From: Anthoceros angustus
Taxonomy: Eukaryota > Plantae > Anthocerotophyta
Reading direction: 5' to 3'
NCBI GenBank assembly: GCA_010909165.1
Contig: VJWM01000302.1
Location: forward strand, 1 to 64,000
Length of the DNA stretch: 64,000 nt
A program made the translations under genes and the position numbers. The notes under the pieces are model-generated. The model was not told where the DNA came from, did no database searches, and worked only from the letters and a program-made list of their open reading frames with translations. Positions 9,023-38,122 of this stretch are shown here, piece after piece (position 1 is the first letter of the stretch; each line of letters starts with the position of its first letter).

Positions 9023-12000
9023 CTAGTGCTGCCATATGTTTATAGTGTTTGGCAGTTGAGAGTCCTTTGGTAAGCACGTCGGCTGTGTTCTCATCATGTT
9101 GATGTACTGAACTTTTGCTACTCCTCTTTCGGATACATCCCGTATGTAATGATGATAAAGCTCTATGTGTTTCGTGCGTGCATGAAACCGAGGGTTTGCT
9201 ACAAGGGCGATGGCGATGGTTATCACCACAGTGGGTAGCGGTCAGGACATGTAGATGGAGTCAAGGAACTGTCTTTCCCACTCCAGTTCCTTGCAGGCAT
9301 CCGTCAATGCCTTATATTACGCTTGATTGGTGAGAGGCTAAAGGCGTTTGCTTTTACGGGACCAATTTACGAGGCAAGAAGGCAAACATATCTGCTGAAA
9401 ATGCGTCAGTATCGACAGAAGCCGGTCGGCATCAGCAAGGGCGGTAAGTATAAACTCTCGTTTCCCACTAGCAGTGTAATGCAAACCATAGGTGATGGTG
9501 CCTTTTAGATATCGATAGATTCGTTTAACTGACCTGATGAGGGGAGTTGTCGAGCCAGGCCACAACAACGGCTGGCGATGTCTGGGCGTGTCCAGTTGGA
9601 TAAAAAGATCAGGCACCCAAAAGCCTCAGCATACGGGACGTCGTGCATACGCTCTTCCTCCTCTGTTGTGCAGGGTGACTGGTCAGCAGTGAGCTTCACA
9701 CCAACCACACACGGAGTAGTCACGGATTTGGCCTCATGTAAGTGAACCGTTTCAAAATTTCCTTAAGATACTTAGTTTGATGCAGGATAATAGTGCCCTG
9801 GTCTCTGTCTCGCAGGATCTGGATACAGACAGGCTGCGAGGGGACCTTGATCGGTCATCTCAACTCACATAACAACAAGGCCTTAACCTTGTCAAGCTGT
9901 TCAGGGCTATTACTCAAGAGGATAGCGTCGTCAGCGTCAGCCAAGACCACAAACAGGCCTCCCTCAGCTAAGTAAAATACATTGGAATCAGCTGGGGATT
10001 GTACAAAACCTGCTTGGCGTAGGAACTTCATAATCCGCTTAAACCAAGCTCTAGGACTCTGTTTAAGACCATAAATGGTCTTGAGTAATTTACATACCTT
10101 CTTTGGCCATTTTTTACTAACAAAACCCTCCGGTTGCATCATGTAGAGAACCTCTTCAAGCTCTCCGTGAAGAAAAGCTGTGCATACATCCATCTGGTGG
10201 AGTTCCAGATCTAGTTCAGCAGCAAGGGCAAGAAGAATACGGACAGATGGAGGTTTCACTACAGGCGAAAAGGTATCCCCATAGTCGATTCCTGGAATCT
10301 GCGAGAAACCTCTGGCCACAAGCCTGCTTTTGTAACGCGCAATGGTACCATCAGACTTCAACTTGGTTTTAAAAACCCACTTACAGGTAATAGGCTTCCT
10401 GCCAGGCGGTAAGTCGGCAAGTTCCCAAGTGTTATTTTTAATAAGGCTGTTGTACTCATCATCGATAGAAACCCTCCAGTGTGCACCATCAGGCCCATTC
10501 AGGGCTTTGTTATATGTATGAGGATCTGGACGAACATCTGGAACATGGATGTCTGTAACATGAGCAGCTGGTTTTCGAAAGTCAATTGATTGATATGGAG
10601 TTTCTAACCAATTTTCCCTTGGCCTCCTCTCACGGATAGGATACCTCGGTTCCTCGGGATCACAGGAGAAGCGGAGTGTGGTTGTGCTTTGCTTTCGGGC
10701 ACCCCTGCTGGAACTCCTCATCACTTCGTGCACCAGCAGAACCGTCATCAGAATCAGAGAAGAACCCGAGATCATCCTTTCCTCTGCAGGGTCACAAATC
10801 GTATCCTGGTGGAGCATCCCCCTCGGGGAATGGAATATCTCGAAGAGGGTTCTATTTGCATCGGTTGGATGGACAGAGCTCAAGACTAACAGGCATCATC
10901 AAGATGACTGATGAGAGGTGGGGCTTCACCATCGGATGGATAATCGGATGAGTTTCCAAAGCCTATGATGAAGGAACATTTGAGCAATAAAGGATTAGGG
11001 GACAGTGTGACTTGGGGGCTATGTAGCTCGTCAAACGTAACACTACGTGCAAGTGTCAACTTAGAGGTCTGTGGGTCAAGCAATTTGTAAGCTTTGGATT
11101 CTTCAGAGTATCCTACAAACACAAGCTGCTTAGACCTGTTATCTAATTTACCTCGTTTGGCTTCAGGTATGAAAGCATAGGCGGGAGAACCAAACACTTG
11201 TAAGTGAGACAAGCTGGGTTTTCGACCCGAGCTTCATAAGGAGTCATGTCGGCTGGACATAAAAGCGATTGTGGATATATGTAGCGGCTACCTGACCTCA
11301 GGAAGGACTTGGGGAGAGGCCCATGTGACATACTCCGAGTCATTCCCATCAGCGTCTCATTTTCCTTTCATCAACTCCATTACAGTTGTTGTGTATAGGG
11401 GACATAAAGTTGCAATGTCGTGCTTCTCAAACAGATCATCAAACTTATGACACGCAAATTCTCCTTCGTTATCTATTAAAACACTTGACTAATCTACATG
11501 CGCCTCGAACCATATGCATCCATGGAGATATGTTCAAGACATCACTCTTGAGTTTGAGAGGAAAAGTCCAAGTGTATCCTCGAGAAATCATCCCGTCAAG
11601 GAAAGGAAATATTAGCACCTCCCAAGCTCTTAATGAAATTTGCACAATGTCGGCATGTATGAGCTCGATTGCTTTAGCCTAGTTGGCTCTTTGTTTCTGA
11701 AGGGTTGCTCCTTTGCTTTGACGAATACATGGAGCCACCACGTCGACAAGTGTTTGAAGCGGTGAGGGAGTTTTTCGATAGAAACTTGAGTTTGGACATA
11801 AGGATCAAGCTTAGACACATTAACATGCCCAAGCCTAGCATGCCAAAGGTTAGCCTTTGAACATATATATGCAAAGCGAGCTCTAGCTTTAGACTTTGTA
11901 ACTGTAACAAGTTGATACAAATCATTAACGAGAATTGCCTTGGCTATGTGTTTATCAGGGTGTGACAGATTGTACATGTAACATTTTTTGTCCTCAAAAC

Positions 12001-13156
12001 GGAAGCCATACAACCTAGTCTGTGCAATGGCTCTAATGGACAAGAGATTTTTGCTCATGGAACATACAAAACGTCTTCAAGATGCAGGGTGGTGCCATCA
12101 AGCAGTGGAATGTTAACGACACCAACACCTCTACCTCAACACCACGTGAGTCTCCTACAAACACTGATTGTGGCATGGACTGTTTGTGATATGTTGAGAA
12201 CATCTGACGATTGTTGCAAACATGTGCTGTAGCTCCAGAATCGATAAACCAGTGATTAGAGGTTTCACGATAAGAGGTAAGGCAAACCGTTAACACAGAA
12301 CTGCTATTCTTGTGTATTGGAGTTGGATTCTGTCCAACTGCTCTGTCCTTAGATGTGACATGTGCTTCAGGTTTGAAGTCACGCTTAGGATCTACCTGCT
12401 TTTTCTTCCGGCAGTCCCTTTCCCAGTGACCCAAAAATCCACACCAGTTGCAGTTTCCCTGGCGTTTAGTGGAGCCAGATGAGTGTCAGTTCTGGCCACC
12501 GTTGTTATTGTTGCTGAACTTATCCTTCTTACTCTTATCTTTCCCCTTCCAAGGGCCTTTTCCTTTTGCAGCAAAAAGGACCTTGTCACCTCTGGCGACC
12601 ACGAACGATCTTCGACTGTTCTTCTTGTAGGAGGGCTCCAACCACTTCATTGAAGTTGATAGTAGCGATTCCGATGGCAAGACATGACATATGAGTCCAC
12701 GAGAGCGAGTTGGAGAACAAAAGTCTGATAGGAGGCAGGGAGGCTGGCAATGAGCTGAGCAGTCATGTCCACCTCCGAGATTTTGCTGTTGAGGGTAGCA
12801 AGCTGTGCTCTAAGATAGCATAGCTTCGACACATGTGCCCCAACCGATTCTCCATCCTTCAAACGCAGAGCATGGAAAGCATTACGGGCAGTAACCAAGG
12901 TAAGTATGTTTTGTACTTGATATGTGTCCGTCAACTGTTTCCAAACTGCAGCTGCTGTATCATGAAACTCCACCTCTGTGACGGTGGTTTCATCAAGTCC
13001 TGACAGCAAGATAGCATAAGCAATCTTGTTGCCCTTCTTCCACTTGTCAATAACATCTTGTGTCGGCTGATTTCCACCAACAGGCACAATGGAAGGATCC
13101 GGGAGAGTGCCATCGGCGTATTCCCACACATCGCAAGCGTTGAGATTGGCCTTCAT
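9023..13156 (-). pseudogene. gag-pol: Copia-2 gag-pol (frameshifted)
   Basis: gag 12647-13156 (VWKQLTDTY); zinc knuckle CNWCGFLGHWERDC; protease WFIDSGAT; LWHARLGH; FGSPAY...FVGYSEESKAY; RT CKWVFK, HQMDVCTAFLHG, YGLKQSPRAW; RNase H FHARTKHIE. Confidence 0.93.
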
Positions 13157-14813
13157 GCAAGCTCTCCAACTTTCAAACCTGGTTTGAGTCCCATCAAATC
13201 TGTCTTTTTCCTTAAATTCTCCTGAGTAGGTAGAACCTATGAAAGTTGTAGTCTGCTGGGCTCATGTAAAACCCATGTTGGCAACAGGGAGAACGGGGAT
13301 AAAAGTGGGGATAATAGGGAGTGGTGGATTTGAGTAGAGCCAGGCAAAAAGTTCAGAGTCTGAGTCACTATCTGAGTCAAACAACGACATATCCTACGGT
13401 AACGCCATTTGAGCTGTGTGTGTGGACTATGCTTCAGCTAACAGTGCTTGCAGGAGATTTGATAGGGACGAGAGCACGGGAAGGAGAGATGAATGTTATC
13501 CTATCCTGTCCGTGATCTTGTCTACTATGCAGATCTCAGGCACAGCGTGTGTTAACTCGAACGAACAATATGTGTGCAGGGACTGTGGGCCAGGGGAAGC
13601 AACGGATAAAAGTTTTATCCTAGCCTACGCTTGCTCTTCCTCTTGGTTCATAGTTCCACCACACATGAAATGGTGAAAAGGTACGTCTGTACTGAACAGA
13701 TACGTAGAAACCCTAAAAACCAGAAAAGTCACGTGAACGCTAACTAACAGGTGCAAGTGACCTTATTTTTCAGGTTGGGAGACACCAAGAGGTGTAGGAT
13801 CTGCGACAGGTCAGATTAGCCAGGCAAACACATGCAGTGCTGGACATCCACCCCAATAGGCACCTTGATCAGGGGCGCCGATTGGATGCTGGAATTGCAG
13901 CTTGCACATTTCCTGGCTATGGAGAGCGTCGCTTCAGATCACCACCTTTGACCTCACAGCATTCCTGCACTTGTGCACTCACGTGTAGGTACAAGTGAGT
14001 CCAAATACAGGGCTGTAGCAGGCTATACCTCTGAGATGGGTGCAGGGCGATGCTGGACAGTCAGGTTGGCCAAGTCATTCGCCACATTCAGCACTTCTCT
14101 TCGAACAGTTTCAATGTCAGAGGAGATTTCCACCAAGAACGGCTGAGTATTTGTGACGAACCTGATCATCAATGATTCAATTACTTCCAGCCAAAGAGAG
14201 AGCCTTTCTGAAGCAAAGGGATCTACTGACAGGAAAGGATTTTCTGCAGCAACCCATTGTGCTCCTCTCGTTGGTGGGGAAATATCCTCCTCTTTCGCGT
14301 CCTCACGCAATGAATTCTGAATTTGTGAATCTTTGTTTAACTGTGCGTGTAGGCGCTGACGGTGGGCAGCAACTCTGGCTTGAAAGCTGTTGGGAGAAGG
14401 CCGCCTTGGGACTCTGCTATAGTAGCTGCTGGGAGAAGCGTCTATTTACAACAAGCCTTTCCCTTCTGTCTACCATTAGTCCAAGAATCTGTGATGAGGT
14501 CATTGTGGCGCCTCTGTACATATACTTCCCTAGAGAGAACCCTTGAAGGAACGTCAGGAGGAGTCCTTTCACGACGTCTCCTGTTCCTTCGAGGCATTTT
14601 TCTTTAAGGCAGATTCATTTAGCAATATGTACCTATCTAAATTCTGACATGTTGAGTGCAGGCAGGTGAGACAGAGCTGTCAGAAGAACACAACATCTAT
14701 CTAAGATGCATGTTCTATGTTGCTGATAACTCTGTTTCGCTTGTCATGCTCAACATTGTCATAGCTACGTGCCATAGCTAGACATTTAGTGCAGCGGAAG
14801 TCGCAAAGCCGTA

Positions 14814-14897: not shown

Positions 14898-15557
14898 GAG
14901 CCATCTCTTGAGGGGCCCGCTGAACAAGGGCCCACTAGCAAGGCAAGAGAGGAGGGGGAGGAGGACTTGGTGGTGACCGTTATCGAGCCGCCACGGTGGC
15001 TCAGCAGTTTTGGGAAGGGAAGGGGCCGCCTCGCGGATCATCGATTGGGTGCGCCTGTGATTGTTAGGAGCTAGGGCTTGGGCCGCGGAACCAGGGGAGC
15101 AACCTTGACTAGCAGAGCAGCGTAGATAGGCGGAATAGAGAAATAGTGTTTGAGCTAGGGCCTTGAGCTGGCCACTAGCTAGAATAGGAGTGTAATAAAG
15201 GCGCGACCTTAGGCGCGATATAAAGAGGGCGTGCTCTAGTAAAGCATCTTTCTTTCTTGGGGTGGATCTGCGTTTCCTTGTAGACCCTTGCGTCTTTTGC
15301 TAGCGTGAGTCTGAGTCAACTGGCGAGCACGGCGGCGGAGAGACTAATCAAGGTCCTGGTGACGGACCCTAACGTGTGGTGGTGTGTGCAAGACTGGACG
15401 ATCAGGGACCTGTCGCGCCTTAGCAGCATAGCGGCATGGCACCGGGTTCTCATGCATATGTGTCATCCTACCTTACACATTGCTCATATGCGTTTGTTCA
15501 GGACAATTATGCAAGCTTGATTCCACCCAAGTGAGGGGAAGGGTTCACCCCCAAAAT

Positions 15558-16143
15558 GGCAAAACGCGATCGTTATCCCTTCCAAGCACTCTCGTGGGCA
15601 GCATAGCTTAGAGAGATCTTAGGGCAACCTCGCCGACACCCTCTATCCCTAGCTCACATTCGCCACCCCAACGGGAGCTGTATGGCTGCCCTCTCTACTG
15701 GGCAAACATCAGCAATCCGCCTCGCCCTGCGGATTGCTGCCCCTTAAAACCACCTACACCGGCCAGGCAGCTGTGATCATGAGCGGCGACCGGCGCTGCC
15801 GAACCCCGGTGGCCGTGGCCGTGCCGAGATCAAGCTTGGCGCTTCGTGCTCCATGTGAACCCGTCTCCATGCCTTGGGAATATGCCGTTGCCGCTCCACA
15901 TGACTATACACATCTTTGCTCACATACTATCATGCCATCATGCCTATCACCACACACATGCATCCTTTCTCCTATCTACCCGGCCAAAGCGCCCGGTTGC
16001 CATGGTATCGCGCCTTAGCGACATAAGCGGCATGGCACCGGGTTCTCATGCGTATGTGTCATCCTACCTTACACATTGCTCATATGCGTTTGTTCAGGAC
16101 AATTATGCAAGCTTTATTCCACCCAAGTGAGGGGAAGGGTTCA
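15558..16143 (-). repeat. Complete 3' LTR (Y+X, ~586 bp) of the DNMT-Gypsy
   Basis: Y matches 24236-24680. On the minus strand it begins with TG after a TTTTGGGGG tract (16144-16152, putative PPT). Confidence 0.7.
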
Positions 16144-16278
16144 CCCCCAAAATGGCCCCCCTGCCAAAGTCGCGACCACAATTGATGCTGGTTGTGGCAG
16201 CACTTTGGACACTTCAAATTCCATAGAAGCGCCGGTAAAACCGTCTGAACATCAAATCCATTTGAGGTTCAGGGTTTG

Positions 16279-17055
16279 TCATCTTGCAACCCTCCATGGC
16301 GGAAGGGCCGCCACCCGCCGCTCCTCGGGATCAAAATATTCATCAATCTGTGCCTTGCCTAATCGTTGCCGTTCCCTAGCGCGATGTCGAGCCAATAGCT
16401 CTTCCTCTTCATCACTGTCCAGCTCGGTCTTCACCCTGGGAAGTTGTGTCCCATTTAATCCATTTACATAATATTGCTTTTCAAGGCATTGTGCCCGCAA
16501 GAAATCCCCCACATTGTTATTAAGGAGATACCAACACTCAGACGTTGGTTCGTCCCACTCCAACACTCCCGTCCTCAAACATGCAAACACCCTGTAGAAA
16601 GCCCTAGGATAGCCGATGGCATACCGGCCCGCTCTTTCTCGATGAAAGTGACTAAGCCATACCTTTAAGCTGCGCACGTCGGCTGGCTTCTCTTGCTGCC
16701 GATACATGAGGAAGCCTTCCTTGGGCCAGTGATCGAAAACTTGGTGCATAAACAGATGATGCTCCGGTTTGAAAAACCCATAATAGCTGGTCCACAGTTT
16801 GCTGTTCATGCCCGACTGCGAGTTCAAAAAGGTCCTTGTGATCATAGGAAAATTCTCCACCGGACATGTCTCATGATGCGATTCCACATATAACAAGAAG
16901 GCTTGCAATTCCAGAAAGGTTTCCGGCCGTTCAGGCTTGCCAGGTTGATACTTGCGTACCAACGGGTTGCGCCACTTGTCCTCCCACGGTCGGATGCAGG
17001 TGAGGCCTGTGAGCCATCTGCGGCGAAGCATCATTGACCTCCAAATCCATGTCAA
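16279..17055 (-). CDS. Extra 258-aa ORF of unknown function between integrase-PHD and the 3' repeat
   Basis: Uninterrupted, high-complexity ORF in the same sense as pol, with an acidic/charged C-terminus; no family recognised. Confidence 0.6.
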   Translation of the reverse strand: MTWIWRSMMLRRRWLTGLTCIRPWEDKWRNPLVRKYQPGKPERPETFLELQAFLLYVESHHETCPVENFPMITRTFLNSQSGMNSKLWTSYYGFFKPEHHLFMHQVFDHWPKEGFLMYRQQEKPADVRSLKVWLSHFHRERAGRYAIGYPRAFYRVFACLRTGVLEWDEPTSECWYLLNNNVGDFLRAQCLEKQYYVNGLNGTQLPRVKTELDSDEEEELLARHRARERQRLGKAQIDEYFDPEERRVAALPPWRVAR

Positions 17056-17647
17056 CCCACGATAACCGATGCCCTACACACTTGCAACTGTGTTTGGCCC
17101 TCCAATGCCTCACCGTCAAACTAGGGCAATCCAACTACGCCCCACCTCACGACTTCCGCTGTAAGCTCGACGCGCGTGGTGGCGTCCGTCGTGAATGCCC
17201 ACACGACTCCGATTTCTCAGCAGTGCAATTGGTGCTGTACAACCCTACACCACCTCCTCAAGTGCCCCCTCTTAAGGCACCGTGATCACCACCAATCGGT
17301 TTCAAGTGCACAAGCACACACCCGATGGTCGGAGGACGCCTCTATGGTCTCCTCCGCGTCAGCAAAGATGTATGCCCGTCAGTCCTCTGCTAAGCGAGCA
17401 CCTCGTGTCCGCCGCACCCTCACCTTCACTGCCGTGCGCGCCCTCTGCATTGAGCCGCAAGGCTGGCTGGTTAATGGCCCGCCCATTTGTTACTTCCTCG
17501 TCTCCACTCCTTCGCTCAAACCCGCGCCCGCTATCGTGGCGTGTCGGTGCTGTGTGTAACACACATGGGTTTTTCATGCACCGTTTTGCCCTAGCTAACG
17601 CGCGCCTTCGCGGAGGCCGTTTTTGGCGAGCCATTCCCGGCCATTTC

Positions 17648-19080
17648 TTATTGCTGAACATCACACCGATGACAGTACCACGCGCCATCAGGTATCACTG
17701 TGAGCGGGGGCCGCAAACAAAACGCATGGTACCCTCGGTTACATTTGTCACAAAGCAACATCACTTCTGGATCCGTGATGTGACCACACGATTCGCAAGA
17801 TAAATGAAGCGGAGGCTGCCAGGCCTGTGGTTGAGTCATGGTGTCTAGGTTGGGCAAATGACATGGTGCTAAGTGACGCATGTGCTCCTTGCACCGTCGC
17901 CCGTCCTGGCCTTCCAGCTCAATCACCCCTTGTTCACCCACACTCACCACTCGTAAGATTAAGCGTCCGGTGCTTACATCCAACGTGCTCGACGGTCGGT
18001 GTTGTAAGTACACAAAGTCCCCTTCTTCGAATTTTCTTGCTTTGGGCTTCCATGATCCTCCTCGCGTAAAGGCGTATCGGAGTTGGTCTCGGTGTTGCGC
18101 GACTGCCAAGTTGTCCATAGCCATTGGCATCACCCGCTGAAAAAGCTTCGCTCGCTCTTGCAACTCCACGAGGCAGCCCGGACCATGCCCAATCCACGAG
18201 AATAAGTGTCACACAATGTTTGGCATCGCATTCCGTCCGAACATGATGTAGTCTGGTGAAGTTGCCATGTATTTGCTGCCTGGCGATCACATGCCCCAAT
18301 GCCACGTATGGCGTAATTCATCCCAACACTCGGGTTCGATCTCGGTGCAATACTTGCGGAGAGAGTCCTTGAAAGTTTGCACCAACCGCTCGGCCAACCC
18401 GTCGGCTTGAGGGTGGTCTCGGGAGTCGACGATGATCTATCGACTTGATCCAACGGTGTTTGAAATTCACCTCGAAACTGTTGCCTTGGTTGTCAATACT
18501 TATACGGCTCCCATGCCTAAGCACACCTTGAAATGCCCTTATACTTGGAGCTTCTAATCGGCGAAGGCCAATTCCACCCATTCGAAGTGCTCTATCATCA
18601 ACATGCAATGCTTGTTACCTTGCCTAGTGTGGGTAGTTCGGCATCAAATCGACGGACCACACGAAAAACAATCCACGATGGGCGGTGCAACACCACGTCT
18701 GGGCCAACCTTGCTTTCACAGCATCACGAAGCGCGCATCGCGACACTGCTCCACATCGGCATGCCATGCGGACCAAAAGTATGCGGTTTTCAGCGTGATC
18801 GCTTCACCAAAGTGTCACATCTTGTGCACCTTGGTTACCAATGGTTTCCTTTCTTCCACAGGCGGCACCTCTTTGTTGATCCCTCGATCGACTATGAGCA
18901 CCTTACCATCCTTGTCGCATAGCGAGCAATTCTTCGCACTTTTGGAGAGATACTTCATCCGTCGGGCATATCCGTCTCTCAACAGCGGAATGGCGTGTTC
19001 GAGCTTCCATATGTCTCGAGTCCCCTTGGAGTGGTTCTTTGTTAGTTTACCTTCTATGGCCATCATGGCGGCGAGCACAT
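17648..19080 (-). pseudogene. Gypsy DDE integrase with C-terminal PHD finger
   Basis: Zinc-binding region VPPVEERKPLVTKVH; core HPQADGLAERLVQTFK (frameshifted); C-terminal CESC...MLLCDKCNRGYHAFCLRPPLTVIPDGAWYCHRC is a canonical C4HC3 PHD. Confidence 0.92.
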
Positions 19081-19149
19081 CTTGGCGGTGTCATTCCGTA
19101 GTCTTATCGCGATGGTGTCCGCCGCCACACACGGGTTCTGAGCCCATCT

Positions 19150-20330
19150 GCATTGAGATGCACTTTTCCTGCCCGATGCACTGTCGCATATCATATTCGA
19201 CAAACACAAGGCCCATCGCTTCCCTTCGACTTCATGTCATTAGCGGTGCGAGGTTGATGGTGCGTGACCGGTAGCTTCGACCAAATAGGTACACTCTAAA
19301 GTGCGGGACCGCCCACCCAGCGAGACATTCTCCTTCATAAGGCAGTAGTTGGCCTCTGCGGTGTTGTTCGATCTACTTCATATGCCACGACCCTCTCTCT
19401 TCCTTCCTCATCCTGCGCAGCCCCTATGCCTCACTCCGGTCCAGTATACAAAAGCGAAGGGCCTTTCGAGTTGGGCCTTCTAAGCATTAACTCTCAGCTG
19501 CTCTTTTAGCTCTTGCCATGCTTGCTCCTGCTCCTGCTCCCAGTGCCAATGGACATCTTTTTTGAGCAACTCATACAACGGCTTGCAGGTGCCGCTCATG
19601 TTTCTTATGAACCGGCGATAATAGTTCACTAGCCCCAGGAATGCCCTCAGGGCGGCCACATCCTTGGGTCTAGGCATGAGATTCACTGCCTGCACCTTGG
19701 CCAATTGTGGCAACACTCCTCCTGGTACAATTTTGTGCCCCAAGTAGTCGATCTCTCTAGCAAATTTGCTTCACAGGATGGGCTTCGGCCGGTTGTGTAC
19801 CGTTGTAGCAACATCTCCAAGTGCTCAAGGTGTTCTTCAAACTATCAGAACACGATGTCATCGATGTAGCACTTGACAACGCCTTGCGACTCAAGTCGCT
19901 ACTGTTGAAAATATATGGACGTTCTTTAATCCGAATGGCATGGTCTCCCATTCCATAAGCTCCTTGCCCCAAAATGCCGTCTTACACTGTCTTTCTCCTC
20001 AATCACAATCTGGTTGAATCCGGACCCGAAAGTCAAGTGTGGTGAAGTATTTGGCCTCTGGAGCGTCAAAGATCTCGTCGGGGGTAGGCATGGGATACCG
20101 TTCCGCGTTATCTCATTCGAGCTCGATAATCCCCACATTCTCTGTCCTTCCATTCCCGTGTTCATCCTTTTGGCCGGAAGCATGCTGCGACATATTGCGA
20201 GGTTGACTTCTGATCGGACCGACTCTGCGACTCATGCCGTTTGTCCACGATGTCCCTCCATGGGGCTCAACTTGTCTTCGTGAACACCGGTTCGCCGGTG
20301 GTGGTGATCTTGAACTTGATGATCATATCG
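19150..20330 (-). pseudogene. Gypsy reverse transcriptase and RNase H (frameshifted)
   Basis: SGFNQIVIEEKD, MPFGLKN, CYIDDI, LGHKI, LRAFLGLVNYYRRFI and WHWEQEQEQA. Confidence 0.9.
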
Positions 20331-20559
20331 AATTGGCCCAATGAGCGCATAAAGGTACCTCGGTTTACGAGTAGCATCTCCGAATCTTTTCTTTGCTCGG
20401 TTGCAGCTCTTCACATATTTGCCACTCATCGTCCGGACTTGCGTGGTTCCCTTCCGGTAGCAATGGGGCGTGCTTCTTATGAGCTCGCTCACGGCTTCTC
20501 GCGTGAGGATCCAGATCTATCTTTGTCGTCACATATGAGCAGACGCTCCCTGCTGTCCT

Positions 20560-21530
20560 TTTGACACATGGCCAGTTGTATGGCCAACCCTGTGGTCAGC
20601 AACCATTGCATACAAGTGATATCAAAGGCTTGCCCGATCAATCTGCACCGGAAAGATTCAGACACGCCAGGTGTATAAGTGCCCCCTGCACCATATCCCA
20701 TGGCCCGCTCTCGTTCGGTTACCGTGGGCTCCCCAACTTCATTTCCCTCATTGACTGACCATGCCTCCTCCTCCTTTCCACGAGCATAAGTTGGATGGTC
20801 TTGACAAGCGTGGGCCAGGCCCTTCTTGGCTTTCCAACCACATTCACCGGGTAATGAGGCAGTTTGTCCCTCTTACGCACTTGTTGTGAACATCGCCCAG
20901 GCTCCAGGATGTCATCTACATAACAGTTACTGCGTCAATGGGTGATGCCTCAGGTTGGTCACACTACCCACATTGGTCCAGAAACTTCGTACCCGGTGTG
21001 CATATGAGCCGGTTTGCACAGCATCGACAATGAACTCTTCTCCCAGCCAACCTCTGAGTTGCGCATATTGTCTTCTCACACACGCTTGTCAAAAGCACCA
21101 CACACATTTTCAAGCACGTACCAACAGGACGGGTTGACTGCTTGCACTTCCTGTAGGATCCGAATGACCTCCACAGCCAGTTCCATGCCATTGCCTGAGC
21201 CACGCCCAGCTTGGGAGAAGGTCTTGCACTCCCATCCTGCGATCAACAGGTCTACCTTGCACCCAATGACCCCAAGCTGTCGCTTACCCACCAGTCGGAT
21301 GTCCGCGGGCAGTCTGCTCTGACAGCCTTTAATGGCTTCCCTGCTCAACAAAGTGGGGTTCTCCCTTTGTAGCCGAATGATCCTGGCCCTTAGCCACCGC
21401 GCGCGTCCTTTCATCCAGCTCGACACACGTGTACTTCTTGATCGGAATGCCACTTCTTAGTGCCGCTTCCAACCCGCTGCTGATCCCAGAGCACAGTTCC
21501 ATCAAGTGAATGCCTCGTCCATCCGCTGCC
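20560..21530 (-). pseudogene. C5 DNA cytosine methyltransferase domain (Dnmt3-like) embedded in Gypsy pol
   Basis: Motifs in canonical order: I LMELCSGISSG; II CVELDE; III PADIR; IV VDLLIAGWEC; VI YVLENV; VIII VDAVQTGSYAHRVRSFWTN; IX EPTVTERERAMGY; X RLIGQAFD. Apparent frameshifts near 21390 and 21070. Confidence 0.92.
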
Positions 21531-21849
21531 CATTGAATCACCTTGTTGTTGATTCGCAGCCTAGCCGGGTTCAAGGCCGGCATCTTCGGCAGGCTTTTCT
21601 CCGGACATAAGCGGGTCATCGGGCATTCCGAGGTCTGCCTACGTCGGGTGTCTTCTCGCACCACCGCCCGCACCAACTGTGGAGTTCTTTTGATACACAG
21701 GTGGGCACTTACCTCACGACCCTCCTGTGACTCTTCCCTCATTAATTCCTCGGTCTCTTCCCAAACTTCGGCTCTATGGACGCTTCCCACTGCGTATGCG
21801 ACCACTGCTGATGTACTGCCTGGTTCCTCCCCAGCTCTTTTCATGCTAA

Positions 21850-23855
21850 GCGGAATCCTGGCCATGTGCGAGAAGTCCCCGTCTCTCCACCGAGGTCGGT
21901 AGAATGCCACTGAATGTAGTGGGTCCACCCCCATCGCCGGTCCATGCGTGGCGTCAGCTCCGAGTAGCACATCATAGTTGCTTGCATTGGATACCAGGCA
22001 ATGAACCTCAATGACCGAAGCATCCTTGGTGCCTGGTTTGAGCTCTATGCGGATGGGGTCTCGAGTGATCCCCATCACTTGTTCTTTGGTGCCCGCCGAC
22101 GTAGTGATCGCTCCAGCTCAACTTTGTCCCCATACTGGAGTGCATACTTTCGGGCACCAGCAAACGGATCCGCACCGTGTCTACGGCCACACGTGCAGCG
22201 AACCCATTCACCATGACTTCCCGACCACGGTTGTCCACCTTGGCGACTCCCCCTTTTCCTCTGGCAGCTGGCTTCAGATGTTCACCACACAAGCTAGTGA
22301 GCCCGGACACCACATCGACTCCGGCGGATGCTTTCTTCATCCAATCTTGCATTGCCGACTTGAACGCCTGTGGCTTGACTCCCAGATCGCGCAAGCTAAC
22401 CATGGGCACGTCCAACGCTTTGTCCAACAGCAACTCGTTTGGCGACTTCCTTTCTGGGGGGTTGAAGGCTTCGTGATCTTCCAGTTGCCTGAAGGACGCG
22501 GGCATTTTGAGTTGATTCCTAGCCCCAGCCCCTTTTCTCTTAACACCTTCTCCCATGTCAAGGTGATTTTTCATACCGGTGCTCACCCCCATGGTCATCA
22601 GTGCATACACCTCCTGATCTGAATCGTACTCTTCACAAGTGGCATTCGCAACTCCTGGTGTGCTGGCATTCATGGCTAACTGCTCCTGCAGGTGGTGCAC
22701 CTCACTAAGCAGTGCCTTCCGAGTATAGTTCACTGATGATTTCATCTTATCGCCCTGCCGATCCCCAACTCCTTTGGGCTTGAGTTCTGGGTGACCTTGC
22801 CAACAGGCCGCTTCCGTGTGGCCCATTCTGGCACAAGTCCTGCACGGTTCCTTCTCCTTCGCTCCACCCACTCGGTACTCGCACTCAGATGCTCTGTGCG
22901 CACCTCCGCACCGCAGACACTTCATCATGGCCTTGGCATTCACCGCACTGTTGGCCGTGCGTTCCCTAATGGGGGAGCCTCTCCGGGTTATGCTCCCTTG
23001 TGGCTGTTCCCGTGGAGCAGTCCTCCCATGCGCCTTGTGGGCATTCGCAGCATGCTGATGTCCCTTGACGAGATTGTGCTCTTCCCAATATGCACTAGTC
23101 ACGGCATCCCCTTTCATGACCCTCTCTGCCATTTCATAGGCCTGATCCAGCTCATAATCCGCACCATGCATCATGTGCAGAAAGTTGGCAATCACTCTTC
23201 TCTGTCTTCCGGAGGCGGCTGTAGATTTGGGCGGCCTCCGCGCCTCTTCTGAGTGTCCTTTACCAGCCTTCTTGATCGCCCGACCCAGGTGGCTCATTGG
23301 GCTTGATGGCGAATCTCGACAACTCCTGGATCTTCTCTATGGAGGACACTGGGAACATTTCCGCGAACTTGTTGAACATCTCATCCACCAAAATGTAGTG
23401 GCAGCCGCTTGCGTCACACTGGATGACGTCCCCTCTTCGTCTCCTTTTAGCGTCCTTTTGGCTCTGTCTGCCCGTGCCAAGGACCGTGCATCTTGCAGAA
23501 TCTGATCCTTACAATCGCGGTAGCATGTGAGTGCTTCTCCGGCCAAGAATGTGCTCATTTTCCTCAAGGCCATCTCGGGAGTGAACTTCGATTTGTACTT
23601 GAGGACCATCTCATCAATCGCCCATCTGAATTTCTCTTCGAAGTCAGCCAACGACATACTGCCGTGTCGGCCCGTGAAGACGTCATTCTTACTAGGTGAT
23701 GGCTCATACTCCATCCTGATCTCACCACCGCTTTCTTCAAATGCGATGGAGCGAATGGGACTTCGACTCCACTCAAACCGGCGCTCCTGCGACCCAAAGA
23801 ATGTTGAGCTGCGGGGCTGCGAACTTCCTGCACCGGGGTGCTTTCGTTTGTCCAA
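21850..23855 (-). pseudogene. gag: Gypsy gag (two zinc knuckles) and aspartic protease
   Basis: gag N-terminus FTG...DFEEKF...FLAGEALTCY; knuckles CLRCGGAHRASEC and CRTCARMGHTEAAC; protease VAVDT...YDVLLGAD. Confidence 0.85.
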
Positions 23856-24223
23856 CCTGAGCGTAAGAGTACCATCACCGTGTCAATCTCGCCCCCTGCG
23901 TGACACTATGTACGGCATTGCGTCAAAGTTAGTGTTGGTCCCTTCGCTGGTCCAGTCCGCCAGCCAGGCCAATTTATCTATCACTTCTTCCCACAGCCTT
24001 TGCCACAGGTAAAAAGGTTCTATCTCTGCCAAGACTGCTAACTCAACGATGGAGCGACCAGCATAAAACAGCAAAGAATAATCCACAGTACTCCCTGCAA
24101 AGTCCACCATCTACTTGGCTGGGTTGGCATCCGTGGGCCCCCTTTGGCTACGTCAGTGGTGATGCCGGGCGCTCCGCGGGTCTCACTACGTGGGTGGTCG
24201 TAATGTCAGGCTCCAGAACAAAG

Positions 24224-24235
24224 GGATTGCTGATG
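24224..24235 (-). promoter_or_regulatory. Putative self-priming PBS of the DNMT-Gypsy
   Basis: Minus-strand CATCAGCAATCC directly follows the LTR-terminal CA and is perfectly complementary to LTR sequence at 15707-15718; no TGG tRNA-type PBS is present. Confidence 0.7.
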
Positions 24236-24680
24236 TGCAAAACGCGATCGTTATCCCTTCCAAGCACTCTCGTGGAACGCGAAGCCGCGCAACGCCTTCG
24301 GAGAGATCTTAGGGCAACCTCGCCGACACCCCTCTATCCCTAGCTCACATTCGCCACCCCAGCGGGAGCTGTAGCCATGGTCGCCCTCTCTTCGGCAAAC
24401 ATCGCCAATCCGCCCGCCCGCGATTGCGCCCCTTAAACCACCTACACGCGGCAGCTGCAACGGTCGCGGGCAAAAGCGATCGCGGCGCACGAACCGGTGG
24501 CCAGTGGCCGTCGATCACAGCGCTTCGTCTCCATGTGAACCCGCCTCATGCCTCGAATATGCCGTTGCGCTCCACACATGACTATACACATCTTTGTTTC
24601 ACATACTATCATGCCATCATGCTATCCACCACACACATGCATCCTTTCTCCTATACCTATACCCGCCAGCTTGATTGCCA
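24236..24680 (-). repeat. 5' terminal repeat (Y only, 445 bp) of the DNMT-Gypsy
   Basis: Direct repeat of 15558-16002; begins TGCAAAACG and ends TTGCCA on the + strand. Confidence 0.88.
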
Positions 24681-25101
24681 TGTGGAGACCCTTGCTGCGT
24701 CCAGGAAGCGGCGGCGGCGTCGGACGGACGAGCAACGTGGTGGGGGAACTCGGGAGGCGTGAAGAGCCGGACGGAGGCTAGCGGAGCAGCGGAGGAGGTC
24801 CGGAACATGACCCACCACTCTTTTTCCAAGTGTGATCGTCGGGAGGGTGAGGGAGAATGGACTAGGCGGACGAGCAGGCGGTGGGTGCAGACGGTGAGGT
24901 CCTTAAACGTTTGGCTGCTGGGCTGATCGGTGAAGACGTTAAGAGTGGTTAGTCGTGGGGTGTGCACGCTCAGGTCAGCTTGGTCACTCGTGGGGTGAGA
25001 ATCGGTTGGCGTGCCAAGCCAGACCTATCATTCTCTTGGGAGCGGACCCTTGCTGGCGACACGGGATTGTGCGCGGTGGCCGTCGTGATCGCGCCACATT
25101 T

Positions 25102-25299: not shown

Positions 25300-26589
25300 T
25301 TGTCAGACCGTGAGGAGGACGTAGTGCAAAGTCCGGCGACAGTAAGGGGGACGGTGAATCCTCAACCACTGTTGGCTGCGGCGATGGCTACGACGTCGAC
25401 AAAGCAAGCATACTCCCTCTTTGGGGGAAAGAAGGAGAGGGACGCGGAAACTTTCGTGGAGGATTTCTTGTCTCGTGCAAACTTCAACGGAGAAGGCTGG
25501 ATTTAGCTCATTCAAGCATTTAGGGGTCGCCGGGGCGGCGGCTCGGTGATGCTTGGAGAAATGCTGGGCACCCGACCCCCTCCTCCAAACTTTGAAGCGT
25601 TGAAGGATGCCTTCCTGGAAAGATTCCGCGAGATCGACCAGGAAGGCTACGTCCTGTCCAAGCTCGAGAATGCAGGCGGGGAAAAAGCGGAGGCTGCAGG
25701 ATCGTACATCGGCGGTTCTACACCCCTCGGGACCGGCACCCCACTCACCACCATGCGAGGCGTGCGATGGTTGTGACGACCTACCTAAGCCAATGGCCAA
25801 GCATGTGCTGCTGCTCGCCGAGAAGGATGTGAGTAAAGCGGTCCGGGCAGAAGAGAACTACGAAGAATCGATGCACCAACGAAGAACGAGGACGACTCAA
25901 GGAGGGAAGAAGAAGAAGAAGAGATGGAGTTCGGAGTCTGAAGATGAGGAGCCCTCGGAAGAGGAGGGTGAAGAGATTGAGGTTACTTCGGAGGAAGAGG
26001 AGGAGATCTCCGAGGTAGAGTCCGAAGTCTCTACGGAGGAGGAGGAACCCCACCATAAAAATAAAAAGAAGAGGCCCGTGGTGAAGCGAAGGGTCAGAAG
26101 GTTGTGATGCTTGGCGCGAGGCTCCACGGATCGGCCCCTTAAAAGTAGCGGGTTTGAGGAGGACATGGAGAGTAATGAAAGGTGGAGGAGTTAACGATCA
26201 ACGGTGAAAGATCGCGGGAAGGCAGCCCTGCAGTCCGGACCCATTTGTATGGTGTGCGGTGTGCCACCAGCACCGGGCACTTTCGAGAGGCTACGCCCCT
26301 CGGCCCGTGAACCAAGTGGAGTCCGACTACGAGGAGGTCGGAGGAACAATGGGAGGGCGCAACACCACCAGAGTGCGGAGAGTTCCTCAGGGGCGCGATA
26401 TCCAAGGCGATGTATCCTATATAGGCGGGGGTCCGTCATGCCCGTACCGATGCAACACACATGAGGCACCCGAAATTCTCGAGCGATGGTGCAGTGAGGT
26501 GGGGAAACCAGGCACCACTCAGCACGCTTGCCCATACCCACCCAGGCAAGGTAATTGGAGATTTTGAGCAGCACAGTGGGGATTGCAAG
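25300..26589 (+). pseudogene. gag: Gypsy B1 gag (frameshifted, truncated by element A1)
   Basis: FGGKKERDAETFVEDF and NFEALKDAFLERF (retrotransposon gag-like). LLLAEKDVSKAVRA.ENYEESMHQRRTRT is nearly identical to 59309-59506 on the minus strand. Confidence 0.8.
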
Positions 26590-29279
26590 TGTGGGAGGAA
26601 AACCACAGGGCTTCAAGGCTTCCCCCTCTAAGCGGCCACACTTATCCCATTTAGCCCGTCACGTTGGGTTTCGTCCCATGAGACTCGTGTGAAAGTTCGA
26701 GTCTTGTGATAATAGATCGCTACTGCGGTGACACAACTACCGACCTTCTAAACAAGCAGGCGCCCTCTACTCACCCTCTTCACGGTGCACAGCTTGCCTT
26801 TCAGAAAGACTACCAATTCTCAACCTACAATGACACCATTGCAGGTCCTGCCTTAGCAGCAAGGAGCCTACCACGGGCGCCGGGGACCCCAGTCCACACA
26901 CACAATTTCGTCCCTACTTCTAAGACCAATCTTCTCCACTCGAGGCGCCCTTTTACTTGCAGTTGGGATTCGTCCCTTAGGCACACAGCCTTCCACTAAC
27001 GTCTACACTCTAATCCTCTACTCGTCTCCTCCTCTTCCTCCTATTCTAACCTCAGTTCGGGCTTACTGGATTCGGCTCGCCTTAGCTGTTGCACGGTCGG
27101 CCTCCACCAGCAAGTTCTTCATTGGGCCAGTTGCTATGAGTTTGACACGGCAGAGCACCTCCGGGGAGTCTTTCCTGGATTAACCTCAAGAGAGTTCCAC
27201 AGGCATTGCCACACACCCGAGCAAAGCAATTTCACGGCAACCATTCACAAAGAGCAACTCGTTTAGGCACTTGCAGGAAGCAAGCCCTCCACCAAACCAC
27301 GACTTCCTCTCTACCCTGACTGCGTTGGCTCACGGTGACACGAAATTCCTTTACAAGGGCAAAGGACTCGGGGGTATGGAGCGCAAAGACATGATACTTT
27401 ACTTTGAAATCCTCCTCTCCTCTTATAGGAGGCCTTCCACATACAACCTCCCTTGGGTGACCCTCAGTGGGTCACCTTTTCCAATATTCTATTATTTCCT
27501 ACACTTGCATTTAAGGCACGGCATCTAAGTCTCTTGCCTGATTCGAGGTAAATTCTATTCTAGCAACTTCACCTAAGATCATCCTTAAGGATGTCGACTT
27601 ATCTCACCTATCCTTTCTATTCTCCTACTCACATTTATGGTCTTTGACCATACCTAGTCCTCACCTTGCTGGGATAGTGGCATGTCCTTTGTGGATTGGC
27701 TCCCTCGCCCTCCTTTTGCTCTGCCTTCCCGATCACATCGTCATCTTCCTAGTGTGGGGCAAGTACAATTTTGCCCCTTCCTCCATTCCAGCGGTGGCTG
27801 ATTCCCCTCATCATCCTCGTGCTTTTACCCCTTCCGTCGTAGCCCTTTCTTCCGGCTTTGGCTCCTTCTTCAATCACCCTACGTGAGTGGCGGACTCAGA
27901 GTAACGACTACCATGGTAGTCTGGTCCCCTTCTCCTTTCTTCCTTCCTTTTCATTGGTGGTGACCCTTGGGTTGGAATCCTCTTTGCTTCTTTCCTCCTG
28001 TTTGGTTTGTCCATACCGATCATGGAGCATCTTCAAAGAGTCTTGAAGAGTCTAGAGGAGTTAATAGCGACATCTTCATGGTCGATGTCGCTATTAACTC
28101 CTCCGGACCCTTTTTTATAGAATAATTTGGATGAATGTAATAGATAGTACAAAAGAGTGATCCCAGTTGGTTCAAAACCCAAGGATGTGTTAATTGATCA
28201 ATTCATTTGTTGATTGATTAATGGATTTATTTTCTTTTCCTTCCATTTTGGTAGATCACGTGAGGTCAAGATCCAAGGAGATAATTGTATGGTATTTATG
28301 TATGTCCTAGTAGAAAAGTCTATCATAAAAAGTAATTACACTTCTAGGATACTATGCTATACATGCATGTCATAGTATGAAAGACTACCATGAAGAGTGA
28401 TTCCTCACTTGAGATAGTATGCTATATATATGTATATCAGAGTAGGAAAGACGATATATCATATAAAGTGAGTATCTGATTCTTGCAAAATTTAGCACTT
28501 GTTCTTGCGACCGCAAATTTGATAGTTCAAAATGAAATCAAAACAAAACTCCATGAACTTTCTTAATGGAAGTGGCCCGAAGTTGATGATCTCCAAATGC
28601 AATATCATAGCTTGGGGGCTCACCTCCAAACCGAATTTTGAAGGCCAACAATGAAGTCTTACGATTGGCCAGAGGAGGACATTGGGTCCTCCATGATGAT
28701 GACGAGGAAGCTGCGGCAAGTGAGCGGAGGCCTCAGAGCTTTAGACGAGGGCCACGAGTGACACGGACTCAGGAGTCAGGGAGGAGATGGAGGCGGTGTG
28801 CAAGGGGAAGAAGATGAGTCGGAGGCAAGGAGGGGACAGCCCGCCCTCCGCGGTCACGCTACCACGGTGGTGCCGGACTACCGTGGTGGCTCCTCGCATG
28901 TCGCGGACTGGGGCGTGGCCGGTACCAGCCAGGCGAGGGGCACGAGGGGGAGTCGGGCCGTGAAGGCACTGGTGTGGTGAGCCAGGGGTCCGGTGGCATA
29001 CCCCACAGAAGGAGATGAGGCGGTGGAGAAAGCTTGCCGATTGGAAGACAGAGCCTATCACTGAGCTCGGGGGGACCCCGCCGCAATTTCGTCCCTACTT
29101 CTAGACCAATCTTCTCCCTCGGGCGCCCTTTTACTTGTAGATTTGGGATTCGTCCCTTAGGCTGCACTGTGGCCTTCCATTAACACCTACACTCTAATCC
29201 TCTACTCATCTCCTCCTCTTCCTCCTATTCTAACCTCAGTTCGGGTTTACTGGCCTCGGCTCGCCCTACCAGGTTCTTC

Positions 29280-31070
29280 GCAATTCTTCTTCCATGTCCC
29301 GGATCTTGATGGCTTGAGTAGCCATCACTTGTTCTTGCGCATCCACTTCTTTGGACACTTTGCTTTTCTCGTCCTAGAGCCTCGTGCTTGCTCTTCCTCT
29401 CCACGCTCTAGGTGGGCAAAGTGCTCCTCGCCTTTTGCCTCCATGAGTCCCTTTGGGTGGTGGCTCGAATAGCCCTCTCCTCCGTTTGGGACAGTTTCCC
29501 CTCCAGGACCTTCTCCGCCTGCCGTTGATCCATAAGGTCGCTGGGTTTCCCCGGCCTTTTCCAACTTGGCTGCCTTCTCACTTTCGTTGATCCATAAGGT
29601 GTGGCTGGGTTTCCAGCCTTTTCCAACTTTGAAGCCTTCTCATCGGACTCCATGGCCTCCAATTGCCATTTGGTCCTTGCTCTTCTCTCTGTCATCTCTT
29701 GGGCCTTATTCGCTCGGACTTCCTCTTGACAGGCCCATAAGGAGGCTGCTAGGTCTCTAGCCCCCTTCAAATCCACAGTGAGTGCCTCTGGCACTCGGAC
29801 AAATCTCTAGGGGCCCCAATTTTGCCCCATGACCTCTTCTTTGGAAATTTCCAGCCTTCCCACACTCCTCGGGCCATCGCGCGGCGGCGTAGGCCCTCGC
29901 ACCGTCGCCCCATCTGCTCTCCACGGTAGTGATGGTGTCTGGGCGCTCATGAGCGCCTCAGCTCCTTCCTTCCTCTTCCCTACCGTGGGCTGCGCCTCTG
30001 CGTGGGGTGCCTCCGCGGTGGCACTGTATCTCGTGGTGGGGTGGCTCACGGTGAGCGAGGGTGGTGCCTCCCCTTGGGGTGGGCTGCCTCCCCTCTTGGG
30101 GTGGGGTGCCTCCTCTGGGCACTTGCGAGATGGTGGGGACTCCTCCCACCCTTGGGGTCACCTCATGGTAGTCTCGGCCTTAGACTACCACAGCCCTCTG
30201 GCGGATCTTGCTCTTCTTGTGGGGAAAGGCCTCCCACTCCGGAACCTTGTTGCCTCCGCCACTCTCTGCTCTCGGTCACAGGGTCCTTGTGGAGTTTGTC
30301 CTCCCATGGTCTTCCTCGGTATGAAAGGGTGAGGCCTCTCTAAGCTTGGCTGGAGGTGGATGATCTCAAGGATGCCAAGCATCCTCAAACTCTTCTTGGT
30401 CAGAGCCCTCGTTTCCTGCACCAAATAGGTCTTTGAGGTAACAGCCTTGGCTCATCCACGAATTGCTAAGGAGCTTCTCCACATGATGGATGTAGGCCTC
30501 ATACATGAAAGTGCCCCAATCGGCTTGGCTCCTGAGATCTTCCACAAAAACTGGAGGAAGTTGGTCTTTGAAATAAGAGGTCGTTGGTAATTCACCAACC
30601 AACACAATTTTGGCAAGGCCTGCCACTTGACTCCTTGATCTGTCGGTCTTCCGGCCATTCTTGGCGTGGGCCTTCACTCCTCCGTCCATCATGTCAGGAC
30701 CTCTGCGGAATTTCGAGAAATCCTCTTCCCTCCATTTGTCCTCTCGAGAGAGCAATTCTGAGCTCTCCTCCTCGGTCTCCCATACACTTGGCGAATGCTC
30801 GGGGACATCGGCAGCGGATCCGTCGAGCATTCCTCTCCACGGCTTTATTGATGGAGGTTGATGTAACACTCCTCAATCAACTCCAAATTGGTGTAGGCCA
30901 TTGGCGGCCATACACCCATCCCAGTGGATGTTCTCCTCTTAGCCCATTGCGAAATCTACCAAATCGCGGGGTTGTTGCTGCAAAGCAGTGAATTGGGCAT
31001 TCAAATCCTCTCCTCACAGGTGGCGACCTCCTGCCGCCTTCTTTTCCTTCCTCCTCGTGAGGAGGAACCT
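29280..31070 (-). pseudogene. LTR-embedded accessory ORF of A1 (frameshifted)
   Basis: LGWVYGRQW, DGGVKAHAKNG, ADWGTFMYE and a coiled-coil tail; homologous to 38123-40283. Confidence 0.75.
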
Positions 31071-32047
31071 GGCGGTTCCTTCCCTTGCCCTTCCTTGAGG
31101 CATGGCGTCTTTCTTCCCAAGTGCTTCTAGGGGGTGAATTACTTCCCAAGTCTTGAGGAGAGCTACTTCCCAATGGCTTGTTCCCAAGTGCTTCTCCTCC
31201 TCTTGGGCGGCCAAAACCTCTCGAGACACAATTCAACGTTAGGCTGTGATGCTTCGGTTATGCAATTTTCCTCGAGCTCTCCTTCGGGCAAGCGCCTTGG
31301 GTGTAGTCGCGCGTTCTTCTTTAATCCCTTCCACAATTCGAGGTTATAGTGTGTTCAACCTGCGCCTCCCGGCGTTGGCGTCGCCTCGCCTCAAAGTTGC
31401 TCCTCCCTCCACTCCGTTCGAGGCTCGGAAGGTTCCTTCACGTCGCTCACGGCTTCTTCTCTTCTCCTTCCTTAGCCTCCGCTCTTCAATCGAGTTTCCT
31501 TCCTTCTCGGTGGCGACTCCCTCTTGTGCTCAACTTGTTCGCGTGGTGGTGGCGGCGATGGCGGTTTCTCCTTCTCCTCTTGCGCTTCTCCGGCTCAGTC
31601 TGATCTTGGCAGTGGGGCGCCCAATTGGTGGTGCCCCAAAGCGCACTTTGCCCTCCTTGGATGGACGGGCGCTCGACCCTAGATTTGGTTCACCATCCTA
31701 AAATACCTAATCCTCCTAACCTACCTGTATCCTTGTTTACTACCTCTAATTAATCTAATTATCTATTTATCTATTCCCTATTGGTGAGCATATATAGTGG
31801 ATATCCCCTATATTAATTTCTTTTGCGAGATCTCGTCGACCTACCACGGTAGTCTGCTTGACCTATCATGGTCTGCTTCCTCTCGCCCTCAGGCATAGTG
31901 TGGCGACCCTCTGATGATGCTTGACCTGCCTTGGTGCCTTCCCGTCTCGCCTAGGAGTCGTTTTGACCTATTTCTTTTCCTGCGATATCCTCGCCTTCCT
32001 AACAATATTCCCTAGCTCACGGTTCTCGAAATTTCCTAGCATGTCCT

Positions 32048-37300: not shown

Positions 37301-38122
37301 AATGTGTGGGGCAAGTACAATCCTGCCCCTTCCTCCATCTCCGCGGGGCGGCGCCTAAAGTCCTGTTACCTTCCATCAATCGCGCCCCCTCCCGCGCACC
37401 TAGGCGCCCTTTTCTCCAGCCTCCGCCGCCTGGTCGCGCCCCGTTCATCAGCACCCTACCGCGGTAGTCGGCGGACTACGTGTGTCTGATCCCTTTTCCT
37501 TCTTTCTCCATCGGTGAGGACTTCTGGGTCAAGATCTCCATTGCTCTTTGCCTTCTGTTTGGTTTGTCCATACCATAGAGCATCTTTAAAGAGTCTTCTT
37601 CCCCAATTGTCACCATGTCTAACTTCTCGGGCCTTTTTGCATTGGTCTCTCTCGGCCCTGGCTCCTCCCTTATCGTGGGGAGGAACTTCTCACCCTCCTT
37701 CCTCGGGGTGGTCGTCCAGTCTCCTCCGGTGGGGTTGTCTCTCCCACCTCAGCTGCTCCTCGGTATACTACGGACCCCGGCTCCTTCATCCTCGGCCGGG
37801 CCTCCTCGGCCCGGCCCGCTCCCGCCCGCGGCACACCACCCCGGTAGTCGCGGACTAGGCGTGGTGCTACCAGTGGCGGACTACCGTGGTTGGTCACCAC
37901 CATGTAGGTTGACCCCGGAGGGCTGTCCCCCTCCTTGCTCTTGCGCCATCTTCCACCTTTGGCGCTCGGCCTCCCTCATCTCGACTCCTCAGTTCCTCGA
38001 GTCCATTTTGATGGCCTCATCAAAATCGGAGGCCTCTGGCTGCACTGTTCGACTCCTTCATCATCATGAGGACCCAATGTCCTCCTCTTGGCCGCAAGAT
38101 TTCATTGTTGGCCTTCAAAATT

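Follow-up and report, generated by a model that had tools for sequence, protein, structure and literature searches.

The window analysed here, a 64,000-nucleotide stretch of Anthoceros angustus DNA (contig VJWM01000302.1), harbors on its minus strand a Ty3/Gypsy retrotransposon carrying a DNMT3-like cytosine methyltransferase (DNMT) domain between the protease (PR) and the reverse transcriptase (RT). The element runs in the order gag-PR-DNMT-RT-RH-INT-PHD, followed by an orphan ORF (Table 1), and keeps the Ty3/Gypsy succession PR-RT-RH-INT with a DDE integrase. Paired LTRs are absent, and split repeats in the DIRS-like layout A-coding-B-A-B are present. The 5' end is placed to within a few bases (24680-24686), and the 3' terminus reads ...GCGCGACA, with the terminal CA present; GGTC directly follows the 3' end and recurs 7 bases ahead of the first TG in A1. 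The two flanks align with consecutive stretches of a single older repeat elsewhere in the window (34810-35460), which supports these ends. A Pfam scan of the gag region returned no gag family match, and Pfam Asp_protease_2 was found in the relative P0005.

Table 1. Features of the Gypsy-Dnmt3 element in the window.
Feature	Coordinates	Strand	Evidence
Whole Gypsy-Dnmt3 element, ~9.3 kb	15411..24686	-	repeat ends and flank matches
Repeat A1, 5' end of element	24235..24686	-	361 of 390 columns shared with A2, 27 gaps
gag with two zinc-knuckle-like Cys/His motifs, CLRCGGAHRASEC and CRTCARMGHTEAAC	22300..23880	-	translation; tblastn of P0003 and P0005
Aspartic protease, frameshift-split	21827..22300	-	own PR profile, E 1.2e-11; 66% identical to P0003 across 94 aa
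DNMT3-like C5 cytosine methyltransferase domain	20576..21544	-	PF00145, relatives' profile, frameshift-aware alignment
Reverse transcriptase (YIDD) and RNase H	19140..20400	-	homology to relatives, frameshift-aware alignment
DDE integrase; D, D and E residues present	17830..18883	-	homology to relatives; 8 frameshift steps, 2 stops
PHD finger, integrase C-terminus	17663..17797	-	PF00628, E 5.6e-11; 5vab_A, E 1.6e-16
Orphan ORF2, 264 codons without a stop	16279..17073	-	open reading frame inside element
G-rich polypurine-tract-like run, just 5' of B1	16156..16165	-	sequence; G run before B1 at the same place in relatives
Repeat B1	16008..16156	-	144/148 identical to B2
Repeat A2, joined to end of B1	15559..16004	-	repeat comparison
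Repeat B2, 3' end of element	15411..15560	-	repeat comparison

Six-frame translation recovers the DNMT motifs in their proper order within 21500-20620 of the minus strand, switching back and forth between two frames: ELCSGISSG (motif I, ~21499), GWEC (motif IV, ~21237-21226), ENV (motif VI, ~21111), AHRVRSFWTN (motif VIII, ~21001), ERERAMGY (motif IX, ~20716), and LIGQAFD (motif X, ~20641). This order on the pol strand had been proposed in a sequence-only reading of the locus, and it is borne out both by a profile of relatives, matched from position 4 to 332 of 334 as four pieces in two frames (E 5e-29 to 3.5e-9), and by a frameshift-aware alignment over 21544-20576 that scores 383 against 26.5-28.5 for three shuffles. 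The domain contains five frameshift steps (near 21385, 21080, 20935, 20799, and 20750) and zero in-frame stops. PF00145 matched a single one of the 13 window fragments scanned, at 21076-21456 (E 2.8e-6, 27.5 bits against a cut-off of 22). The same reading had put motif I and the protease C-terminus YDVLLG in one ORF, which the stop-to-stop ORF 21329-22117 confirms; it had given no frame split of the domain, no PHD finger, and no split repeats. Judged from its sequence, 20576-21544 is a whole, non-permuted DNMT3-like C5-methyltransferase domain.

Retention of the catalytic Cys and of ENV, also claimed earlier, held in both the translation and the frameshift-aware alignment, and RxR and the SAM motifs I and X are kept as well. 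Motif I reads C-S-G, with Cys variants found in relatives. The canonical PCQ is absent, the window reading WECK rather than WECQ, with Lys replacing Gln after the Cys. The loop that follows the catalytic Cys is three residues shorter than in the family, a reading that comes from a noisy stretch of the assembly, and the family loop signature GL..RS.LF, present in 107 of 171 domains, was not found in the window domain. Among the matches listed, the best named one is Marchantia Mp_4g09160 (41% over 319 aa), and identity to the best matches is only about 40%. A word-index search with a 126-aa window fragment yielded nothing among 155 candidates, and direct PDB searches with window fragments gave nothing useful, so the connection of the window domain to DNMT3 runs through its relatives.

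A HMMER search with the motif-bearing frame against 50%-identity cluster representatives recovered 284 proteins at E<=1e-3 (150 of them listed), and the description of such elements as very rare is thus not upheld. Domain mapping separates two orders: PR-DNMT-RT-RH-INT(-PHD), as in the window, with named members in Klebsormidium nitens (GAQ93235.1), Closterium, Marchantia polymorpha, and Calypogeia fissa, and the chlorophyte-type order RT-RH-DNMT-INT-PHD, in which the DNMT lies between RNase H and the integrase, with named members in Haematococcus, Scenedesmus, Chlamydomonas eustigma, and Cymbomonas. Homology thus points to Gypsy-Dnmt3 relatives spread over green algae and liverworts, although most matches are unnamed and the taxon split therefore rests on about 20 named proteins. 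In a quick DNMT tree that took 35 of 105 chlorophyte-type rows, the two orders split on one branch (38 vs 35 rows, SH-aLRT 98), as they do in an RT-RH tree with 22 of 65 unnamed and 7 named chlorophyte-type rows (8 vs 29 rows, SH-aLRT 99), both trees being built without a non-DNMT Gypsy outgroup. The window RT falls inside the PR-DNMT-RT clade (support 97-99), nearest to plant-like metagenome loci and P0199 (52% identity). The window DNMT forms a long branch (1.41) outside the chlorophyte-type clade, as K. nitens GAQ93235.1 also does, its nearer position being unsupported. A scan of IMG/VR gave 80 loci (21-37% identity) resembling ordinary viral methylases, which were set aside.

The chlorophyte-type relatives show further domains. 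P0033, P0161, and P0164 carry a G-patch between DNMT and integrase, and in P0156, P0171, P0216, and others a conserved tail of ~300 aa after the PHD resembles an amino (N6-adenine/N4-cytosine) methyltransferase. Pfam MethyltransfD12 matched this tail below the cut-off (E 0.003) in 2 of 13 proteins scanned; a DPFAGSG-like motif occurs in 9 of 55 tails and an SPP/SPW-like motif in 13 of 55.

That the methyltransferase is part of the Pol polyprotein is supported by the single-ORF relatives P0199, P0032, P0233, and P0236, the first of which encodes the exact window order PR-DNMT-RT-RH-INT-PHD in one 2358-aa ORF. The window DNMT is in frame with PR, and the DNMT-to-RT link, open in relatives, is broken in this copy. 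In a metagenome set of 80 loci, mostly of one family, PR and DNMT share a frame in 38 of 54 loci and DNMT and RT in 33 of 58; in L081, L103, L127, L131, and L138 the stretch from DNMT to RT is free of stops. The DNMT is intronless within the Pol ORF.

Several proteins end 70-135 aa past the DNMT, which suggested a programmed stop separating DNMT from RT; this was rejected for the metagenome locus family, where no stop is common to most copies, a rejection that covers this family and not the Marchantia-like group. The Gag-PR-DNMT proteins P0198 and P0214 (Marchantia Mp_4g09160 and Mp_8g17980), P0193, and P0202-P0208 end 71-136 aa after the DNMT, several of them at the same place, and these shared ends may mark a programmed frameshift giving DNMT at Gag levels.

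The earlier assignment to Dnmt3/DRM-type enzymes stands in its first half. A profile of 31 relatives finds DNMT3A/3C/3B first (1e-24 to 6e-17), ahead of DRM (1e-14 to 5e-11) and M.HhaI (2e-9), and the model of relative P0054 (pLDDT 93) is best matched by DNMT3A/B (TMq about 0.7). The modelled relative shares its fold and motifs with the mammalian DNMT3A/3B catalytic domain (PDB 2qrv, 6w89, 6kda), from which it differs by identity of only 22-24% and by a WEC/WPC motif IV; unlike the mammalian enzymes, the Gypsy-Dnmt3 domain has neither PWWP nor ADD. A DRM identity was rejected because motifs I to X stand in plain order, free of circular permutation, and DRM also scored lower.

GWEC had been singled out as an oddity of this copy, whereas EC is the commoner family state. 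It occurs in 86 of 171 domains, against 70 with PC, so that GWEC is a family trait and not damage; GWECQ is the commonest form in full domains (40/105, followed by GWPCQ, 33/105) and is present in both clades. Across the 105 full domains, the catalytic Cys is conserved in 99%, the motif VI Glu in 100%, and the two motif VIII Arg residues in 100% and 99%. This conservation persists while window identity to the best matches is only ~40%, and we read it as probable selection on catalysis. For the Gypsy-Dnmt3 kind, purifying selection on the DNMT was defined as Ka/Ks < 0.2.

The Klebsormidium precedent cited in the sequence-only reading is genuine: GAQ93235.1 (P0026) is among the matches (E 3.2e-14) and has the PR-DNMT order. 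De Mendoza et al. 2018 (PMC5890265) described KnitGypsy-Dnmt3 of K. nitens, which, as presented there, shares with the window a Dnmt3-related, unpermuted, intronless DNMT in a Gypsy Pol ORF and DIRS-like A-coding-B-A-B repeats. The window differs in host and lineage, in its long branch and roughly 40% identity to the nearest proteins, in having EC where GAQ93235.1 has PC, and in its extra 264-codon ORF2. The hypothesis that the enzyme is packaged and methylates the cDNA or the insertion site, raised again in the sequence-only reading, was already proposed in PMC5890265; yeast expressing the K. nitens domain showed no methylation there, a result its authors called inconclusive. The available text is silent on a PHD, on EC in motif IV, on members from land plants or chlorophytes, on target-site duplications (TSDs), and on the junction. 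According to the same article, the DNMTs of SymbioDIRS-Dnmt3 in Symbiodinium, an independent capture, are alone among retrotransposon DNMTs in having shown de novo CG methylation, in yeast. These elements resemble the window in having a Dnmt3-type domain in Pol and the same repeat layout, but are described as tyrosine-recombinase DIRS elements without the protease-DDE integrase architecture.

Other described elements combine some of these parts. The EpiLTRs of Cymbomonas and Euglena (bioRxiv 10.64898/2026.05.21.726589) likewise pair a cytosine methyltransferase with a chromatin reader in an LTR element, but their DNMT is reported as sister to DNMT4 and accompanied by DAM and a chromodomain, and the preprint sets them apart from streptophyte Gypsy-DNMT3. 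Chlorophyte-type elements with the post-PHD tail would combine a DNMT3-like enzyme, a PHD, and a second methylase, unlike the EpiLTRs as described. PHDs in retrotransposons are already known from algal Gypsy-7a_cRei (PMC9940879) and REM1; in the former the PHD lies in the Gag-Pol polyprotein, as in the window, and was proposed to bias insertion, but no methyltransferase is named in the available account of these algal elements. In the available text of PMC12344493 and bioRxiv 10.64898/2026.05.21.726589, Gypsy-DNMT3 elements are mentioned for streptophytes only. In open PMC and bioRxiv, we found no publication on land-plant or chlorophyte Gypsy-Dnmt3 members, none naming Marchantia Mp_4g09160 or Mp_8g17980, and none reporting the EC motif, the two placements, a cage-less PHD, or integrase-type ends on DIRS-like repeats.

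By homology and architecture, then, the window locus is a member of the published Gypsy-Dnmt3 kind and not a new system, and since the kind is published, the concept of a Gypsy-borne DNMT is not new; the predicted family extends well beyond what has been published. With intact natural ORFs, the members found in Marchantia polymorpha, Closterium, Haematococcus, and Chlamydomonas eustigma bring the question raised in 2018, what a retrotransposon does with its own DNMT, into model organisms, where it is now testable. Annotated Marchantia genes of this kind may also be mistaken for host DNMTs.

Both clades retain the PHD finger on the integrase, and the closest solved relative of the window PHD is that of ATXR5 (5vab_A). 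In PHD fingers, an aromatic cage Trp governs the binding preference for H3K4 methylation; the cage-position Trp occurs in none of 69 family PHDs, 66 of which have Gly. The A-coding-B-A-B layout recurs in relatives L125/126, L144, L154/155, and L120/135. Two independent insertions (L125/126 and L154/155) have TG...CA ends and exact 4-bp TSDs (ATAA, AAAG), and we therefore attribute insertion to the DDE integrase despite the DIRS/PAT-like repeat layout; a tyrosine-recombinase element of the DIRS/PAT type was ruled out by the DDE integrase, by an ORF2 without a Pfam match, and by the 4-bp TSDs of relatives. An internal CA-N(1-3)-TG-like junction is found in 22 of 38 loci, often palindromic. Palindromic B|A junctions such as GACA-GC-TGTC or GACA-AT-TGTC lie 230-760 bases downstream of the PHD in L104, L105, L124-126, the chlorophyte-type L129, L138, and others.

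Taken as a whole, the locus is best read, in our view and with some reservation, as a Gypsy-Dnmt3 retrotransposon whose Pol-borne DNMT3-like enzyme, placed between PR and RT, likely methylates the element's own new DNA copy. The DNMT would be packaged with Pol and work in the particle or the pre-integration complex; its substrate would be the cDNA, because both placements, before RT and after RNase H, keep it beside RT-RH. New element DNA would then arrive already marked like host DNA, and if so, a transposon would be writing the very mark that hosts use for silencing it. Host DNMT3 pairs with chromatin reading by its ADD domain, a reader-writer pair that the element's PHD and DNMT may rebuild, with the cage-less PHD steering integration to chromatin without H3K4 methylation. 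In the simplest reading, the internal B-NN-A junction would template a CA-NN-TG circle junction opened by the DDE integrase.

Base composition bears on self-methylation. A footprint of CG or CWG depletion was looked for in the window pol and was not seen (CG o/e 0.82 and CWG 0.84, vs CG 0.34 for a Copia element in the same window), which counts against heavy, long-term self-methylation in the window lineage. Plant-type relatives are CG-poor (0.31-0.40), and host silencing explains this equally well. Measured on the elements alone, the chlorophyte-type L128, L129, and L139, with all domains in one frame, show CG o/e of 0.42-0.44 and CWG of 1.8-1.9, a CG-deamination pattern that L137 does not share (0.74).

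A different timing, in which a PHD-tethered DNMT acts after integration on the insertion site or on rival elements and not on cDNA, would suit the position of the DNMT directly before the integrase in the chlorophyte-type clade and the shared PHD; DNMT3 enzymes, moreover, act on chromatin. We consider it unlikely, as RT-RH lies between DNMT and integrase in the window clade, where the link to the PHD would be lost after processing. Quite unlikely, in our judgment, is that the window-lineage DNMT has become weak in catalysis and serves as a module that binds DNA or SAM, or as a decoy that draws off host methylation factors. The short post-Cys loop, WECK, the long branch, the lack of CG or CWG depletion, and the negative yeast result for the K. 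nitens domain (PMC5890265) would fit such a loss, but the window retains Cys, ENV, RxR, and motifs IX-X, and the loop is read from the noisy stretch noted above.

An accidental fusion, whether through a fragment of a host DNMT3 gene lodged in a dead element or through chimeric assembly, has almost nothing left to recommend it beyond the indel-rich assembly of this region: the same intronless, in-frame fusion recurs in many independent proteins and loci, the RT and DNMT trees are congruent, and the single-ORF relatives already refute it. The preferred reading, self-methylation of the new copy, can be extended to an ancient green-lineage Gypsy-Dnmt3 clade that packages a de novo DNMT and an unmodified-H3K4 reader and integrates via a palindromic CA-NN-TG circle junction, with a functional EC site, a chlorophyte branch bearing an added amino-methyltransferase-like domain, and a recent, possibly intact window copy with an extra SUKH-like gene; this fuller picture is offered tentatively, and as a whole we doubt it.

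ORF2 had no match in a Pfam scan, no homologue among 497 candidates, and no match to the profile of the relatives' post-PHD tail, and it was not found in the 80 relatives' loci or in 232 proteins. Its AF2 model, with a pLDDT of 41, is unusable. The only look-alikes of the ORF, of the SUKH/Knr4-Smi1/DUF5066 type, are weak (0.91-0.93, 167 shared features at best). The frame is unbroken although it lies in a noisy region.

The state of the window copy is a separate matter. RT-RH (20143-19140) shows 13 frameshift steps and 4 stops; with INT added, the stop count comes to six. Real decay of a long-dead copy would account for these stops and for the 29 of 390 columns at which A1 and A2 differ, and a Copia at 3198-5933 with 2 stops and no frameshift indicates that the noise is patchy. 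We nevertheless rate such decay as the less probable course, if one to be taken seriously, and are fairly confident that the breaks follow a long-read indel error pattern. The frameshift-to-stop ratio in DNMT plus RT-RH is 18:4 in the window vs 12:219 in 23 decayed relatives, which were hand-picked with near-duplicates avoided from loci ranked by tblastn, a ranking that favors few frameshifts. The A1/A2 differences show no transition bias (14 transitions, 15 transversions), and 22 of their 27 gaps span 1-2 bases; A pairs of six relatives of the main family have 26-41 transitions, 2-9 transversions, and 0-4 gaps. The Copia at 47702-54757 serves as an internal control for indel errors in the assembly, since its LTRs are identical at 218 of 219 columns yet have 5 small gaps, and its ORFs are shattered. 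Read as assembly errors, the breaks leave room for a young copy rather than a dead one, and the element is probably young and mis-assembled and no old ruin, though the patchy noise and the six remaining stops mean that it may still be defective.

The surrounding window is a nest of elements, at 3198-5933 (plus strand), 9855-13261 (minus strand), 25300-44200, and 54900-55800, among them two more Copia, a further integrase remnant, and GC-rich repeats whose pairs are 70-89% identical. Many stretches of the window are depleted in CHG (o/e 0.4-0.7), a hint of a streptophyte host. None of 38 other long window ORFs scanned matched a host gene family.
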